Source of the DNA: a virus
Taxonomy: Duplodnaviria; Caudoviricetes
DNA length: 64,000 nt
IMG/VR virus record: IMGVR_UViG_3300032236_001024
Coordinates: 1 to 64,000 of that record
Direction: 5' to 3' (one strand)
Part shown: one piece after another, positions 2,914 through 26,407 of the stretch
Position numbering within the stretch: position 1 is the first letter of the stretch
How the letters are laid out: the number at the start of each line of letters is the position of its first letter
The notes under the pieces: model-generated
Seen by the model: the letters and a program-made list of their open reading frames with translations, nothing else
Told to the model about the DNA's origin: nothing
Database searches by the model: none
Made by a program: the position numbers and the translations under genes

Positions 2914-4224
2914 TTACTTACCTCTGTTTAAAAAACCACGCTTGTTAAGCGTTGCCCAAGCAATCTTTTTTGCCTTTTCTGGTGATTTACCAGCTTCAAT
3001 TTCACTCTTTTCGATGTGCTTTTCCATACGGTCAACCTTAGCACCTTCTTCGACATGTTCTACTTCTTCAGTAGCCTTTACCTTTGGCTCAGGGAAACCA
3101 TGCTTTTTATCTCCCCACTTCTTAAGAAGTGCAAGATCAATTCCCTTTTTTCTCTTTTCAGAAGTTGGTGCATCATCACCATAATATGCATCACGACTGC
3201 TTGTTTTAGCCTTTTGAATATATCTGGTAGCAAGATCACGAGAAATTTCATGAATGGCTTCACGATAACCTTCATCCATTGATTTCTTGGCAGCTTCTGT
3301 CTTTTCAGCAAATTCAATTACGGCTTGTTCTTCCATAATTCTTTTTACTTCAGTTCTCAAGATTGCCTTAGCAGTATCACATGCATCATCATAATCTTCT
3401 GTGAAATACTCATCTTCAGTTGAAGGATTGATTACAAGATAATTTCCCTTTGTATCTTCATGAACTGAGATCATATGATCGCCAATCTTGAATGACTTAA
3501 CATGTGAGAATACGTTTTCTTCAATCTGTTCAACTTCTTCAGCCATTTCTTTCTTCTTAGTAAGAAGTTCCTTCCAATCAGTCTTTTCTTTCTTCTTCTT
3601 TTCAGGATGATATGGAGCATCTGGATTTGGTTTCTTCTTACCACCAGCTTCATAACGCTTATAATATTCGTCTTCACCCTTAGCTTCTTCGACTGATTCT
3701 ACTTCTTCTTTCTTAAGATACTTGCCAATAACCTTACGTCTATTCTTTAGATAAGAATCAGTTGAGTCAACCTTACCATCGTTGTTAACATCAGAATCTT
3801 CTTTTCCAACTGGATCAAGTGCTGGCTTTTTCTTTTTTCCTTTAGAGTCATAACGAGCTTCATACTCAGCCTGACCTTTCATCTTCCATTCTTTTTCATC
3901 AAGCTGTTCAGTTTCTTCTTCAACTGCTTCAACTTCTTCCTTAACATCTTTATCCTTTTCAGGATAATCATTTGTTACCTTAAGGTTCTTGTCGTACACT
4001 TCCTTGGATTCATCATCTGGACCATTTTCATATGATGCAGTTGGTGGGTCTAACTTACGATCTCTTCCATTGAAAAGAAAATCTTGATCAGTAATTCCTG
4101 GCACCATATCTCTATTCGATGGTTTAACTTCACCATGTAATGCCTTGAAATTTTGTTCGCCTTGTGAAAGAGGCTGTGCAACTTCCATAATAGAACTAAT
4201 AGTGCTGAGTACTGACTTTGCCAT
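2914..4224 (-). CDS. Modular K/E-rich internal head protein (putative gp21-processed polyprotein)
   Basis: Four EEVExxEE linkers separate short modules; an EF-hand-like [12 protein letters not shown] is present; it sits in the head gene cluster. Confidence 0.6.
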
Positions 4225-22524: not shown

Positions 22525-23325
22525 ATGGATAGACTTTCTCGTGCAGAAAAAAGAATGAACAGAAAACAAAAGAGAAATGAAGAAAAAACAGTAATATCCA
22601 ATGGACTAAAAATAAAAAGTGTAAAACCAAAGACAGATAACCAAGAATTGGTCTTTAAAGACTTCACAAATGGGAAAAATTTACTTATACATGGACTACC
22701 AGGCACGGGAAAATCATTTATTTCATTATATCTAGCACTATCAGAGATAGAAAATTTCAGAAATTATCACAAAGTTGTTATTATTAGGTCAGTCGTCCCA
22801 TCCAGAGATATGGGATTCTTACCAGGAAATATTAAAGAAAAATCAAAAGTTTACGAGCAACCATACCAAGAAATCTGTAGAGAACTGTATGGACGAGGCG
22901 ATGCCTACGATATCCTAAAGAATAAGGGAATGATTGAATTCCAAACATCTTCTTTCTTGAGGGGGTTGACATTGGATCATTCTATCATTATAGTAGACGA
23001 ATGCCAAAATATGACATACTCAGAACTTTCTACAATCATCACCAGAACAGGTCAAAATTCCAAGATTATCTTCTGTGGTGACTACCGACAAACCGATTTG
23101 AAACATGATGATGAAAAGCAAGGCGTATTTTATTTCATGAAAATTCTTAAGAATATGCACAAATACTTCAGTTGCATCGAATTTATGGAAGAAGATATTG
23201 TTCGCTCTGGTCTAGTAAAAGATTTCATTATTACAAAAAGCAAATTTGACAGAAACCTTTATAACATGGTGCAAATGCATGTGGAAACCGAATTCAGAAA
23301 AGAACAAAACCTTTCAACACACTAA
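22525..23325 (+). CDS. phoH: PhoH-like ATPase
   Basis: GLPGTGKSF Walker A, RSVVPSRDMGFLPG, FLRGLTLD, IIVDECQN, GDYRQTD and IVRSGLV. Confidence 0.95.
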   Translation: MDRLSRAEKRMNRKQKRNEEKTVISNGLKIKSVKPKTDNQELVFKDFTNGKNLLIHGLPGTGKSFISLYLALSEIENFRNYHKVVIIRSVVPSRDMGFLPGNIKEKSKVYEQPYQEICRELYGRGDAYDILKNKGMIEFQTSSFLRGLTLDHSIIIVDECQNMTYSELSTIITRTGQNSKIIFCGDYRQTDLKHDDEKQGVFYFMKILKNMHKYFSCIEFMEEDIVRSGLVKDFIITKSKFDRNLYNMVQMHVETEFRKEQNLSTH

Positions 23326-23974
23326 CAAAATAATTGTTGAGAAGGTAGAACAAATCAACACAGACTCCGGTAGGTTTTATCAAACTCCTACCGGAAATCG
23401 TTACCCATCTGTCACAACTGTTGTTGGATTGATGAACAGAGATGCTATCATGGAATGGCGTAGGCGTGTTGGTGCAGAGGAAGCAAACAAGATTTCTTCC
23501 AAAGCTGCTTCTCGTGGTACTCGTGTCCACAAGATTTGTGAAGAATATATCAACAACGAAGATGTATTTAATAAGAAGTACAGCATCATTGACCTAGAAA
23601 GTTTCTCTAGGTTGAGGAAAGTTATTGATGAGAAGATTGACAATGTGCATCTTCAAGAGGTAAAACTATATTCTGACTATCTCAAGATGGCTGGAACAGT
23701 TGACTGTGTTGCTGAATATGAAGGAAAGTTGTCCATCATTGATTTCAAGACAGCGATGAAGCCAAAAGAAAAGAGTTACATCACTAATTACTTCTGTCAA
23801 GCATCTGCTTATGCTATCATGTATGAAGAGAGAACTGGTATTCCTGTTGGGCAGATTGTAGTAATGATTTCTGTTGATGATGAGGAACCACAAATCTTTG
23901 TAGAAAAACGGGATGACTATGTGGACAAGTTGATGGAAGTAAGAAAGCAATATACCGATAAGTATGGCGTTTAA
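23246..23974 (+). CDS. PD-(D/E)XK exonuclease (real start may be downstream)
   Basis: RYPSVTTVVG, RGTRVH, AGTVDCVAEYEGKLSIIDFKT and QASAYA. Confidence 0.88.
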   Translation: MTETFITWCKCMWKPNSEKNKTFQHTNKIIVEKVEQINTDSGRFYQTPTGNRYPSVTTVVGLMNRDAIMEWRRRVGAEEANKISSKAASRGTRVHKICEEYINNEDVFNKKYSIIDLESFSRLRKVIDEKIDNVHLQEVKLYSDYLKMAGTVDCVAEYEGKLSIIDFKTAMKPKEKSYITNYFCQASAYAIMYEERTGIPVGQIVVMISVDDEEPQIFVEKRDDYVDKLMEVRKQYTDKYGV

Positions 23975-23979
23975 TCTAC

Positions 23980-24010
23980 TTGACATATATTAAACCTCGT
24001 GTTATAAATA
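23980..24010 (+). promoter_or_regulatory. Composite sigma70 (TTGACA-N17-TATAAA, with TGn) and T4 late (TATAAATA) promoter for the tmRNA
   Basis: TTGACA at 23980-23985, a 17-nt spacer, and TATAAATA at 24003-24010. Confidence 0.8.
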
Positions 24011-24016
24011 TGATAC

Positions 24017-24305
24017 TTGGTTGTTGAGGCGCACGGAATAGACAATTCGGACTGGGGGGCAGTACCCCACGCCTCCACCATAAGTACACTGGGGACTTTT
24101 GCTCGCTTTAGAGGATTGGTTCTTATTCCGCAAAGTGAGTGTAACAGTGTACTTTTGATGGGGGCGAAATAGGCTCGACGGGTTGTAGTAAAGGTACGAA
24201 GAGACTAAGTAAACTCGTAAATGCAAACGACAACAATGCATATGATGTGGCTCTAGCAGCCTAATCGGAGTTCGAGGAACACTTGGCAACAGAAGTTCCT
24301 CACCT
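24017..24305 (+). ncRNA. ssrA: Circularly permuted (two-piece) tmRNA
   Basis: The acceptor piece has T-stem TGGGG/CCCCA, loop GGCAGTA, and CGCCTCC-ACCA ending at 24080. The coding piece starts GGGGGCG at 24160, giving a 7-bp acceptor stem with G3.U70. The tag frame at 24223-24264 encodes ANDNNAYDVALAA*. The outer ends are approximate. Confidence 0.93.
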
Positions 24306-24310
24306 TTTTT
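24274..24310 (+). terminator. Hairpin at the tmRNA 3' end; probable terminator
   Basis: GAGGAAC/GTTCCTC stem with an inner TG-GCAA-CA, followed by ACC and a T6 run. Confidence 0.6.
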
Positions 24311-24325
24311 AAAGCAGGATTAATC

Positions 24326-24559
24326 ATGAAAATTATTAATATTAAGACACCATCTGATTTTGTTATTGAAATTGAGATGATTGTGAAGGATAAAAGTTGT
24401 GAATATATTGATGCTGTTATGTTGTATTGTGAAAAACATAACATAGAAGTAGAAACTGCAGCAGACCTAATCAAACATAATTCAGTACTCAAAGCAAAGC
24501 TTCAATATGAAGCAGAATCATTGAATATGATGAGGAAAACTAACAGACTTCCAATCTAA
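24326..24559 (+). CDS. gp33: Late promoter transcription coactivator
   Basis: FVIEIEMIVKDKSCEYIDAVMLYCEKHNIEVE...LKAKLQYEA..LN...LPI. Confidence 0.9.
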   Translation: MKIINIKTPSDFVIEIEMIVKDKSCEYIDAVMLYCEKHNIEVETAADLIKHNSVLKAKLQYEAESLNMMRKTNRLPI

Positions 24560-24569
24560 GGAGTTTATC

Positions 24570-24839
24570 ATGGGATTTAGAAGTACAACAAAAACAGCCT
24601 ATATCGAAACTGAAGTTGATGTTGATCTGGATGACTTTGATATTGATGATATCATTGAATATGTCGAGGAAAAAGGTTATACTGTTCTTGAAGGAAAGTC
24701 AGCTACGAATATGGATGATTTGGATAGTCGTATTTGGAAACTCTATCAGTCATGGAAACTTGATGGGGATGAGCGTCTTAGCTTTTGGAACGAGTGTCAT
24801 TCTTTCTTCTCAGATTACTATAATAAAGTAAGTTCATGA
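24570..24839 (+). CDS. Hypothetical acidic protein
   Basis: 89-aa ORF with an AGGAG RBS, overlapping the gp59 start (ATGA). Confidence 0.7.
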   Translation: MGFRSTTKTAYIETEVDVDLDDFDIDDIIEYVEEKGYTVLEGKSATNMDDLDSRIWKLYQSWKLDGDERLSFWNECHSFFSDYYNKVSS

Positions 24840-25408
24840 CACCTTTTGAAGCGTACAAACAGTATCTTGCTATCAAACAACATTTCACTCTTCCATCTTA
24901 TGATTACTTCAAGTATAATGGTAAGGTAAGAGCAAACGAATCATCATTTGAAAGTCGCAAGGACAAGTATATGTTCTACAAACTTTCAAAGAAGGAAGAA
25001 TTGCACGAGTTTCTTGTGGCAAATCTTTCAGAACATCCAAACATTTGGGTAGGCGATCTAGTCTCAGACGAGTGTGACCTTACCTATAAAAAGTTTCTAC
25101 TGCGAAAAGAATCATTGACATATCTCTTTAAGAATGATATAGATCAACTTCTTGAAGACTTTGATTCTAACTTCAAGGTAGAAGATGGGGAATACCCCCA
25201 TTTACTAAAGCTTCTTATTCGACAGAAGATCAACAAAGAAACATTTATTATTATTAATGATTGTGTGAGTTTCTTTGCTTCTTGGAATAAGAAGATTCTT
25301 GATCCAGTTCTTTGGCCTACCATAGCTATGAACTGTAGTAAACTACGTCCTTTTCTAAATATAGAAAATGATAAATACTGTGTAATCTTGAGAAATAAGT
25401 TTTCTTGA
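24836..25408 (+). CDS. gp59: Helicase loader
   Basis: MTPFEAYKQYLAIKQHFTLPSYDYFKYNGK, FESRKDKYMF and INKETF. Confidence 0.92.
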   Translation: MTPFEAYKQYLAIKQHFTLPSYDYFKYNGKVRANESSFESRKDKYMFYKLSKKEELHEFLVANLSEHPNIWVGDLVSDECDLTYKKFLLRKESLTYLFKNDIDQLLEDFDSNFKVEDGEYPHLLKLLIRQKINKETFIIINDCVSFFASWNKKILDPVLWPTIAMNCSKLRPFLNIENDKYCVILRNKFS

Positions 25409-25462: not shown

Positions 25463-26407
25463 ATGTCTACATTTGAAGCACTTAAGAGCAACCGCAAGTC
25501 TCAGTTTGATAAGCTTAACAGCGAGATTGCCAAGCTAAATTCCCCCCAAAGCAATAACGAAGATGATCGTTTCTGGAAGCCTGATATTGATAAGGCTGGA
25601 AATGGTTATGCTGTCATTCGTTTCCTTCCTGCACCTTCTGGTGAGGATGTTCCTTTCACTCGTATCTGGGATCATGGATTTCAGGGACCGGGAGGATGGT
25701 ATATTGAGAAGTCTTTGACTACTTTTGGTCCCGGCACCGCTGATCCTTGCACTGAGTATAACTCACAGCTTTGGAATTCTGGTATTGAGTCTAACAAGGA
25801 AATCGTTCGTAAGCAGAAGCGTCGTTTGAGCTATTACTCTAACATTTATGTCGTTTCTGATCCTAACCGTCCTCAGAACGAAGGCAAGGTCTTCCTCTAC
25901 AAGTATGGTAAGAAGATTTTTGAGAAGCTTAATGAAGCTATGCATCCTGCATTTGATGAACAGGGTCGTAGTCCTGAACATCCTCAGTATGATCCTTCCA
26001 ATGCATTCAATCCTTTTGATCTTTGGGAAGGTGCAAACCTCAAGCTTAAGATTCGTAAGGTTGATGGTTATCCAAACTATGATAAGTCAGAGTTTGATCG
26101 TACTGGACCTCTTGTTAGGGATGATGAACAGCTTGAGAAAATTTGGAAGTCTGAGTATTCACTCACTGAACTTCTTGATCCCAAGAACTTCAAGTCTTAT
26201 GATGAGTTGAAAAAGCGTTTGGAAAAGGCTCTTGGTCTTACTGTCGAAACCAACAAGAAGGCTACACCTCATAGCGATGATCAGGATTATGCTACATCGC
26301 CTAAGATGGCTGCTATGAAGGAAGCACCAAAGGCTTCTACTCCTTGGGATTCTGCAGAGGAAGACGATGAAGACCTGAGTTTCTTCAAGAAGCTTGCTAA
26401 GGACTAA
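25463..26407 (+). CDS. gp32: Single-stranded DNA-binding protein
   Basis: DDRFWKP, GNGYAVIRFLP, GPGGWYIEKSL, GKVFLYKYGKKIF and an acidic C-terminal tail. Confidence 0.97.
   Translation: MSTFEALKSNRKSQFDKLNSEIAKLNSPQSNNEDDRFWKPDIDKAGNGYAVIRFLPAPSGEDVPFTRIWDHGFQGPGGWYIEKSLTTFGPGTADPCTEYNSQLWNSGIESNKEIVRKQKRRLSYYSNIYVVSDPNRPQNEGKVFLYKYGKKIFEKLNEAMHPAFDEQGRSPEHPQYDPSNAFNPFDLWEGANLKLKIRKVDGYPNYDKSEFDRTGPLVRDDEQLEKIWKSEYSLTELLDPKNFKSYDELKKRLEKALGLTVETNKKATPHSDDQDYATSPKMAAMKEAPKASTPWDSAEEDDEDLSFFKKLAKD

Follow-up and report, generated by a model that had tools for sequence, protein, structure and literature searches.

A circularly permuted, alpha-type tmRNA gene of reduced architecture in the genome of a T4-like myophage

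Between the gene for a PDDEXK-type exonuclease and that for a gp33-like late-transcription coactivator, the genome of a large phage carries a stretch that annotation based on open reading frames (ORFs) would miss, as the original prediction pointed out and our results support. Does this stretch encode, as was also claimed, a circularly permuted, two-piece tmRNA of the alphaproteobacterial type, and what can such a gene reveal about its own origin and about the host? The source genome, a virus record of IMG/VR, measures 202,141 bp, has direct terminal repeats, and is rated 100% complete. It has a G+C content of 35.7% and 21 tRNA genes, which are located far from the locus at 136-180 kb, and it is the genome of a complete, lytic-type, T4-like myophage. 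The window analyzed here comprises the first 64 kb of this record.

The claim of a phage-encoded, permuted, alpha-type two-piece tmRNA is borne out by ARAGORN and by two Rfam models. ARAGORN makes a single call in the window (23988-24355, plus strand, tag ANDNNAYDVALAA), which it labels 'Permuted' and which is the sole tRNA-like gene in the 64 kb. Rfam cmscan matches RF01849 (alpha_tmRNA) with 128 bits and an E-value of 1.4e-34 at 23976-24304 (gathering score 50), and RF04321 (tmRNA_permuted) with 113 bits at 24019-24264 (gathering score 47). These are the only two Rfam matches in all 64 kb at gathering threshold. ARAGORN and the alpha_tmRNA covariance model, the checks that had been named together with the prediction, are both positive, and we place the gene that they call at 23976-24310. 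Such a combination of features is far beyond chance: the gene is real, intact, and maintained by selection. The locus is very probably an intact, working two-piece tmRNA gene of the alpha type that has been passed down in a Kyanoviridae-like lineage of aquatic T4-like myophages, the Melnitz and pelagimyophage group. The parts of the gene and its neighbors are as follows.

22525-23325, plus strand: PhoH-like gene, upstream of the tmRNA (phrog_170, 9.4e-81)
23246-23974, plus strand: PDDEXK-type exonuclease gene, directly upstream of the tmRNA (phrog_298, 4.9e-74)
23980-24010, plus strand: promoter, with TTGACA at 23980-23985, a 17-nt spacer, and TATAAATA at 24003-24010
24015-24080, plus strand: acceptor piece, ~66 nt (direct reading, ARAGORN, Rfam; all of its helices are found by RNAalifold on 12 phage copies)
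24014-24022, 24030-24032 and 24042-24049, plus strand: outer, middle and inner P2 strands of the acceptor piece
24053-24069, plus strand: T arm, stem TGGGG/CCCCA and loop GGCAGTA (direct reading)
24070-24076, plus strand: acceptor 3' strand CGCCTCC, followed by discriminator A (24077) and encoded CCA (24078-24080)
24081-24159, plus strand: intervening segment, 79 nt, presumably removed on maturation
24082-24091 with 24145-24154, plus strand: spacer closing stem, AAGTACACTG with CAGTGTACTT, stacked on the acceptor stem (fold)
24155-24159, plus strand: conserved leader TTGAT, directly 5' of the mature 5' G
24160-24310, plus strand: coding piece (direct reading, ARAGORN, Rfam)
24160-24166, plus strand: acceptor 5' strand GGGGGCG, which pairs to a 7-bp acceptor stem including G3.U70
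24167-24178, plus strand: D-loop analogue, 12 nt
24179-24186, 24196-24198 and 24203-24211, plus strand: P2 strands of the coding piece
24042-24049 with 24179-24186: inter-piece helix, ACAATTCG with CGGGTTGT, 8 pairs of which two are G.U
24212-24222, plus strand: linker, 11 nt, between the last P2 strand and the resume codon
24223, plus strand: resume codon GCA
24223-24261, plus strand: tag frame ANDNNAYDVALAA, with stop TAA at 24262-24264
24268-24271 with 24281-24284 (S1) and 24274-24280 with 24295-24301 (S2), plus strand: 3' pseudoknot, loop GGCAACAGAA
24305-24310, plus strand: T6 tract
24326-24559, plus strand: gp33-like late-transcription coactivator gene, 16 nt after the U-tract (phrog_254, 8e-18)
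24836-25408, plus strand: gp59 (phrog_269, 9.4e-55)
25463-26407, plus strand: gp32 (phrog_224, 3.1e-111)

The permuted order is directly visible: the acceptor strand with its encoded end, CGCCTCC-ACCA at 24070-24080, lies upstream of GGGGGCG at 24160-24166. Each element that had been predicted, namely an acceptor piece ending with CCA at 24080, a 5' GGGGGCG from 24160, the G3.U70 pair, a GGCAGUA T-loop, the inter-piece helix, and the tag frame, can be read in the sequence, and the predicted coordinates are right to within 2-5 nt. The T loop conforms to the alpha-type GGCNGUA (TGGGG-GGCAGTA-CCCCA), and the coding piece contains the terminal pseudoknot with a GGMAACAGAA loop. The middle P2 helix has one C.A mismatch. 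The transcript probably starts at ~24015 (expected 24015-24017), and the U-tract ends at 24310. The tag frame begins with GCA and ends with a stop codon (24223-24264). A tag start of ANDN is found in 90 of 107 viral and 137 of 138 cellular copies, and the tag of this phage combines it with ALAA, the commonest ending (72 of 107 viral copies).

In the minimum-free-energy structure of the precursor (24014-24310), the T arm and acceptor stem, the spacer stem, the outer inter-piece helix, and the 3' hairpin are all present, and the z-score is -4.1 relative to shuffles. Helix pair counts were obtained from RNAalifold and from scripts. In an RNAalifold alignment of this phage and 11 close relatives, every expected helix is predicted and 26 of 54 pairs show compensatory changes; the outer, middle, and inner P2 helices are each recovered with such changes, and so are 8 of the 10 pairs of the spacer closing stem (alignment columns 69-78). 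An 8-bp anchored version of the latter is paired in 456 of 464 cells (98.3%; 58 distinct variants), compared to 67.7% in partner-shuffled controls, and the outer two pairs of the T arm are complementary in 26 of 26 cells with 13 distinct variants. The S2 hairpin at the 3' end is paired in 83% of cells vs 53% in controls, with compensatory changes at 5 of 7 pairs. The S1 stem of the pseudoknot did no better than the control in a crude anchored test over all viral copies (55% vs 52% paired), and on inspection of the alignment it covaries within the close clade of this phage only. Across 105 distinct genes, cognate inter-piece duplexes are on average more stable than non-cognate ones (-14.2 vs -10.4 kcal/mol, p 5.6e-21), showing that the two pieces are co-adapted. 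Overall, more than 100 distinct phage copies show covarying helices. Because of this covariation, and because 89 of the 107 viral tags end in ALAA or RLAA, sequence comparison supports selection on both the structure and the tag.

This kind of gene is already known, since a phage gene at the equivalent position has been published. A two-piece ssrA directly upstream of the gp33 coactivator gene was described by Buchholz et al. 2022 for Melnitz EXVC044M, a phage of OM43 bacteria (Methylophilales), and for pelagimyophages (PMC9004378). Among the 18,146 phage genomes of that study, 402 have a tmRNA; it is two-piece in 53, of which 50 are aquatic, and two-piece tmRNAs were counted in 17 of 47 contigs clustering with Melnitz (PMC9004378). 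A blastn search of our gene, in which the conserved stretches are short, against 50,697 phage records returned no match at E<=1e-5; at E<=1 it yields the Melnitz SsrA and a few alphaproteobacterial phages. The Melnitz SsrA is the best match in a cultured phage, with 70.9% identity over 79% of the query. Both phages share the gene order PhoH, PDDEXK nuclease, ssrA, gp33 coactivator, gp59 (helicase loader), and gp32 (ssDNA-binding protein), a permuted alpha-type tmRNA with the same acceptor and T arm and an ANDN...ALAA tag, the composite promoter TTGACA-N17-TATAAATA, a 3' pseudoknot with an AACAGAA loop, and a low alpha_tmRNA score (107 bits in Melnitz vs 128 here). They differ in the length of the spacer (166 nt in Melnitz, 79 nt here) and of the pre-tag region, which is longer in Melnitz; the Melnitz copy (L031) does not belong to the short forms discussed below. 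Furthermore, the Melnitz tmRNA is followed immediately by a glutamine riboswitch (52.8 bits) whereas ours is followed by a U-tract, the Melnitz genome is smaller (141.5 kb vs 202 kb), and it lacks the ArfA-family ORF that is present here. Our work therefore adds a complete 202-kb genome to the published aquatic T4-like phages with an alpha-type split tmRNA, and the significance of the finding is modest. Beyond the literature searched are only the miniaturized architecture and the co-occurring ArfA-family peptide.

The neighborhood is conserved well beyond these two phages. When IMG/VR was scanned for the motif of alpha-type T loop and acceptor arm, 120 matches were listed, the true total being at least that number. 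The GGGGGCG 5' piece follows downstream in 119 of these 120 contigs, and the one exception stops 10 nt past the motif. Among the matches listed, at least 70 contigs share the same-strand flank on one side or more and 41 on both; PhoH or the exonuclease is found upstream on the same strand in 56 and gp33, gp59 or gp32 downstream in 55 of the 120. In the genome studied here, tail fibers are also encoded upstream, along with PhoH and the exonuclease. Its gp32 is at most 52.5% identical to that of any cultured phage, the best matches being Sinorhizobium phage phiN3 and cyanomyophages.

The cellular counterpart is the two-piece tmRNA of Alphaproteobacteria, of the Caulobacter type (Keiler et al. 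2000, as cited in PMC9004378). With the cellular RNAs described by RF01849 our gene has in common the permuted order, the GGCNGUA T loop, G3.U70, the encoded CCA, the three-part inter-piece P2, the AAAUAGGNUCGA D-loop analogue, the ANDN...LAA tag, and the terminal pseudoknot with its GGCAACAGAA loop. It departs from them in its score, resume-codon offset, coding-piece length, and spacer length, as well as in its promoter, and while cells encode SmpB, this phage does not: none was found in the complete 202-kb genome. Like other tmRNA-bearing phages, it is a large phage with its own ribosome-rescue RNA and many tRNAs that relies on SmpB from the host; unlike here, where the RNA is the alpha-type split form in an aquatic T4-like lineage, most other phage tmRNAs are one-piece and of the host's own type.

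How might such an RNA act during infection? Drawing on established tmRNA biology, we infer transcription, processing, alanylation (charging), and tagging as successive steps. One precursor, spanning about 24015-24310, would be transcribed early from a sigma-70-like promoter, and the same TATAAATA may also drive late transcription. The spacer closing stem could then present the junctions to host enzymes: RNase P would cut before G24160, after the conserved TTGAT leader, and the 3' end would be trimmed to the encoded CCA at 24080. The expected products are an acceptor piece of ~66 nt and a coding piece of ~145-150 nt, held together by the acceptor stem and the three P2 helices. Host AlaRS would charge this RNA through G3.U70, and host SmpB, on which the phage tmRNA presumably depends, would deliver it together with EF-Tu to ribosomes stalled on broken mRNAs, which might be plentiful in infection by a nuclease-rich phage. 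Translation would resume at GCA 24223 and add (A)ANDNNAYDVALAA, an LAA-ending degradation tag for host ClpXP-type proteases. The phage could thereby supplement the rescue capacity of its host.

The RNA is stripped down compared to its cellular relatives. Counted from the 5' end of the coding piece, the resume codon is at 63 nt here and, in 134 of the 138 cellular copies, at 82-87 nt; the coding piece measures 142 nt up to the end of the pseudoknot, where the cellular median is 205 and the minimum 162; and the distance from the stop codon to the end of the terminal pseudoknot is 37 nt against a cellular median of 82. Only 11 nt separate the last P2 strand from GCA 24223, where cellular copies have a PK1 region of roughly 37 nt. 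This linker is too short and therefore leaves no room for a PK1 pseudoknot, which is kept by every sampled cellular alpha tmRNA. By eye, 24195-24199 and 24216-24220 could form a 5-bp helix as a candidate substitute for PK1. The short upstream region is common to 33 of 107 viral copies, and the stripped-down form, without PK1 and with a short 3' domain, is found in a third of viral and in 0 of 138 cellular copies. Because of this architecture, the RF01849 score is low (128 bits as compared to 160-313 for complete cellular copies, and typically 200-313 in 151 sampled alphaproteobacteria). One of the genomes in this draw, G045, is unpublished and contributed one row to the score distribution only; its sequence was not used. 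The spacer measures 79 nt; it ranges from 4 to 266 nt in viral copies (median 81.5), the cellular median being 34.5 nt. Given the loss of PK1 and the low alpha_tmRNA score, both judged from sequence, full tagging activity of the miniaturized RNA cannot be assumed. It constitutes a natural experiment on the minimal requirements of a tmRNA.

The same genome encodes a second candidate rescue factor, listed here in the same manner.

G000:C1:115622-115687 (308-424 of locus L298), minus strand: ArfA-family ORF of 38 codons (PF03889, 29.9 bits, cut-off 25.5)

This ORF has a GGAGG ribosome-binding site and a KKGKG-Y-RK-KH core, and a GC-rich hairpin with a T-run behind it holds the TAA stop in its loop. 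The complete 173-kb genome behind L073, the closest complete tmRNA relative, has a comparable ORF (34.3 bits), and none was found in Melnitz or in three other tmRNA-bearing relatives searched. Together, the tmRNA and the phage ArfA-family peptide suggest that rescue of ribosomes repeatedly becomes limiting for large phages. It is conceivable, though on balance we think it unlikely, that a sub-lineage including this phage and the 173-kb relative runs its own two-tier rescue module, in which a PK1-less two-piece tmRNA with a combined early/late promoter is accompanied by an ArfA-family peptide whose synthesis could be tmRNA-gated as in E. coli. If true, rescue capacity in infection would be largely independent of host regulation, and the phage RNA would be a natural example of a minimal tmRNA that functions in the absence of PK1. 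We also considered ArfA as a means of discriminating between hosts and dropped it, since 3 of 151 sampled alphaproteobacteria carry ArfA; an alphaproteobacterial host is therefore not excluded by the peptide, nor is the host settled by it.

The loss of PK1, the shortened 3' domain, and the Rfam score below those of cellular copies also raise the question of whether a real phage tmRNA might have changed its job. Instead of duplicating the host function in general, the miniaturized RNA could free stalled ribosomes, or it could be used selectively, for instance by tagging host proteins for amino-acid recycling or by replacing a host tmRNA that a defense system has inactivated. Selective tagging has been raised as a possibility by Buchholz et al. 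(PMC9004378), and the ArfA-family ORFs in this genome and in its closest complete tmRNA relative are compatible with a two-tier circuit of tmRNA and peptide. However, conservation of the tag frame and of its ALAA end resembles that of cellular tags, all tRNA-like features are intact, the sequence demands no new function, and ArfA is absent from Melnitz and the three other relatives. We consider a change of job improbable and continue to favor an RNA that tags and rescues in the conventional way.

The upstream region of this tmRNA points to a phage gene. Ahead of the first piece, the promoter can be read in two ways, as a sigma-70 -35/-10 pair or as a T4-type late-promoter motif, and TATAAATA stops 5 nt short of the first paired base of the tmRNA; its early, sigma-70-type reading is probable and its late reading possible. 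An automatic promoter scan of the region did not flag the site because the rule of the scan demands a T at position 6 of the -10 element. In the 64-kb window, TATAAATA is not over-represented (9 copies found vs 11.5 expected), and its significance therefore rests on conservation across relatives. Of 111 distinct viral upstream regions, 77 have TATAAATA at a fixed distance of 65-74 nt from the CCA end, compared to 1 of 131 cellular regions, and the composite motif TTGACN-N16-18-TATAAAT occurs in 53 of the 111 viral and 0 of the 131 cellular regions. A conserved promoter of phage type implies that the tmRNA gene is wired into the phage programme. As for the other TATAAATA sites (window positions 4453-38799), five of eight precede the start of a same-strand gene, in most cases a structural gene, by 26-47 nt and fit T4-type late promoters.

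Phylogeny leads to the same view. Trees were built from 106-109 viral and 130-146 cellular copies; the cellular sample combined 120 motif-matched contigs with 30 high-scoring copies, taken from an evenly drawn set of 151 alphaproteobacterial genomes, and 16 low scorers, the latter being the parsable copies from 20 low-scoring genomes, with six of them at loci of 30-34% G+C. The viral or cellular label requires only 3 changes on these trees, as opposed to ~80 when labels are shuffled, and the copy of this phage sits in an all-viral clade with an SH-aLRT support of 96-98%. None of the 16 added low-scoring cellular copies, including the six from loci of 30-34% G+C, joined this clade. As the drawn genomes carry no taxon labels, a SAR11-like donor is neither named nor excluded by the tree. 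The exact 32-nt acceptor string of this phage copy has 0 matches in about 185,000 species genomes. One contig binned as Candidatus Marinimicrobia (L125 / G004) carries a full alpha-type tmRNA (249 bits against RF01849) and is probably a mis-binned alphaproteobacterial contig.

Within the viral clade, the nearest tmRNA neighbor is that of L019, which is 93% identical. The contigs that are closest by PhoH, gp59, and gp32 (L111, L056, and L052, with up to 76% identity) are not the carriers of the closest tmRNAs, and those that are (L019, L084, and L073) have a protein identity of only 50-60%. The tmRNA may be exchanged among related phages. In L019 (706-1000), the leader of the acceptor piece is as in L084, the P2 strand of the coding piece is as in other relatives, and the inner P2 helix has two or three mismatches; this copy may be a recombinant or a chimeric assembly.

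Could the gene nevertheless be a recent capture from an alphaproteobacterial host chromosome, or a remnant of integration into it, that reports the current host? Temperate phages use ssrA as an integration site, and the cellular genomes that carry the GGCAGTA T-loop together with the same acceptor arm are either labelled Alphaproteobacteria or are unclassified bins with a tmRNA that scores as alpha-type. Yet both pieces are complete, no tyrosine integrase was found in the complete 202-kb genome, which is of the lytic, T4-like type, and the position of the gene is conserved in at least 70 contigs. The phage-specific promoter, the all-viral clade, and an acceptor string that occurs in no cellular genome searched point in the same direction, and the homologous Melnitz gene serves a phage whose host is not an alphaproteobacterium. 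This explanation is largely refuted and we regard it as very improbable; the tmRNA was not recently captured from a host. Of the earlier claim that the RNA is 'host-derived', the deep past is what survives: judged from sequence, the alpha-type origin is sound and predates the divergence of the phage lineage, whereas a recent transfer does not agree with the slot, promoter, clade, and acceptor string described above.

The further claim that the tmRNA points to the host group proved unsafe. Among homologues in culture the nearest is that of Melnitz, and the host of Melnitz is a methylophilaceous OM43 bacterium, not an alphaproteobacterium (PMC9004378). Because of this precedent, inference of the host from the tmRNA type is weak. 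The tmRNA gene evolves as a phage gene, with a promoter and a clade of its own and a slot that is conserved, and the type of a phage tmRNA alone should therefore not be used to call the class of its host.

A last alternative concerns the region 3' of the tmRNA. A glutamine riboswitch at the 3' end of ssrA has been reported as common but not defining (PMC9004378). In the region 23700-24700 of our genome, a search with the riboswitch model RF01739 gave no match even at E<=10, while the same search was positive in Melnitz (52.8 bits). The slot that holds the riboswitch in Melnitz and the U-tract here is occupied in L019, L073, and L084 by a tRNA gene (anticodon TCT by eye, Arg), which begins 7-9 nt past the tmRNA pseudoknot (L019 1002-1075, L084 12522-12595, L073 2062-2135). 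The precursor with its 3' hairpin and U-tract could be imagined to act mainly in cis, as a terminator, attenuator or processing signal for gp33 with tmRNA function secondary or lost, given that S2 is followed by ACC and T6 ending 16 nt before gp33 and that this slot is regulatory or variable in relatives, but this is the least credible reading of all, since a terminator needs no conserved tag frame, G3.U70, T loop, encoded CCA or covarying inter-piece helices, and since the tmRNA is equally conserved in relatives with a downstream tRNA or riboswitch.

The spacer between the two pieces varies in content as well as in length. In this phage, 24081-24159 contains no ATG-initiated ORF and forms a long hairpin instead. 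Small ATG-started spacer ORFs are present in some relatives, including L073 (1812-1908, plus strand), L058, and L276 (Melnitz, about 3056-3221). The product of the L073 ORF would be hydrophobic and ~23 aa long, and the spacer ORF of L058 resembles an ORF located downstream of the tmRNA in L109.
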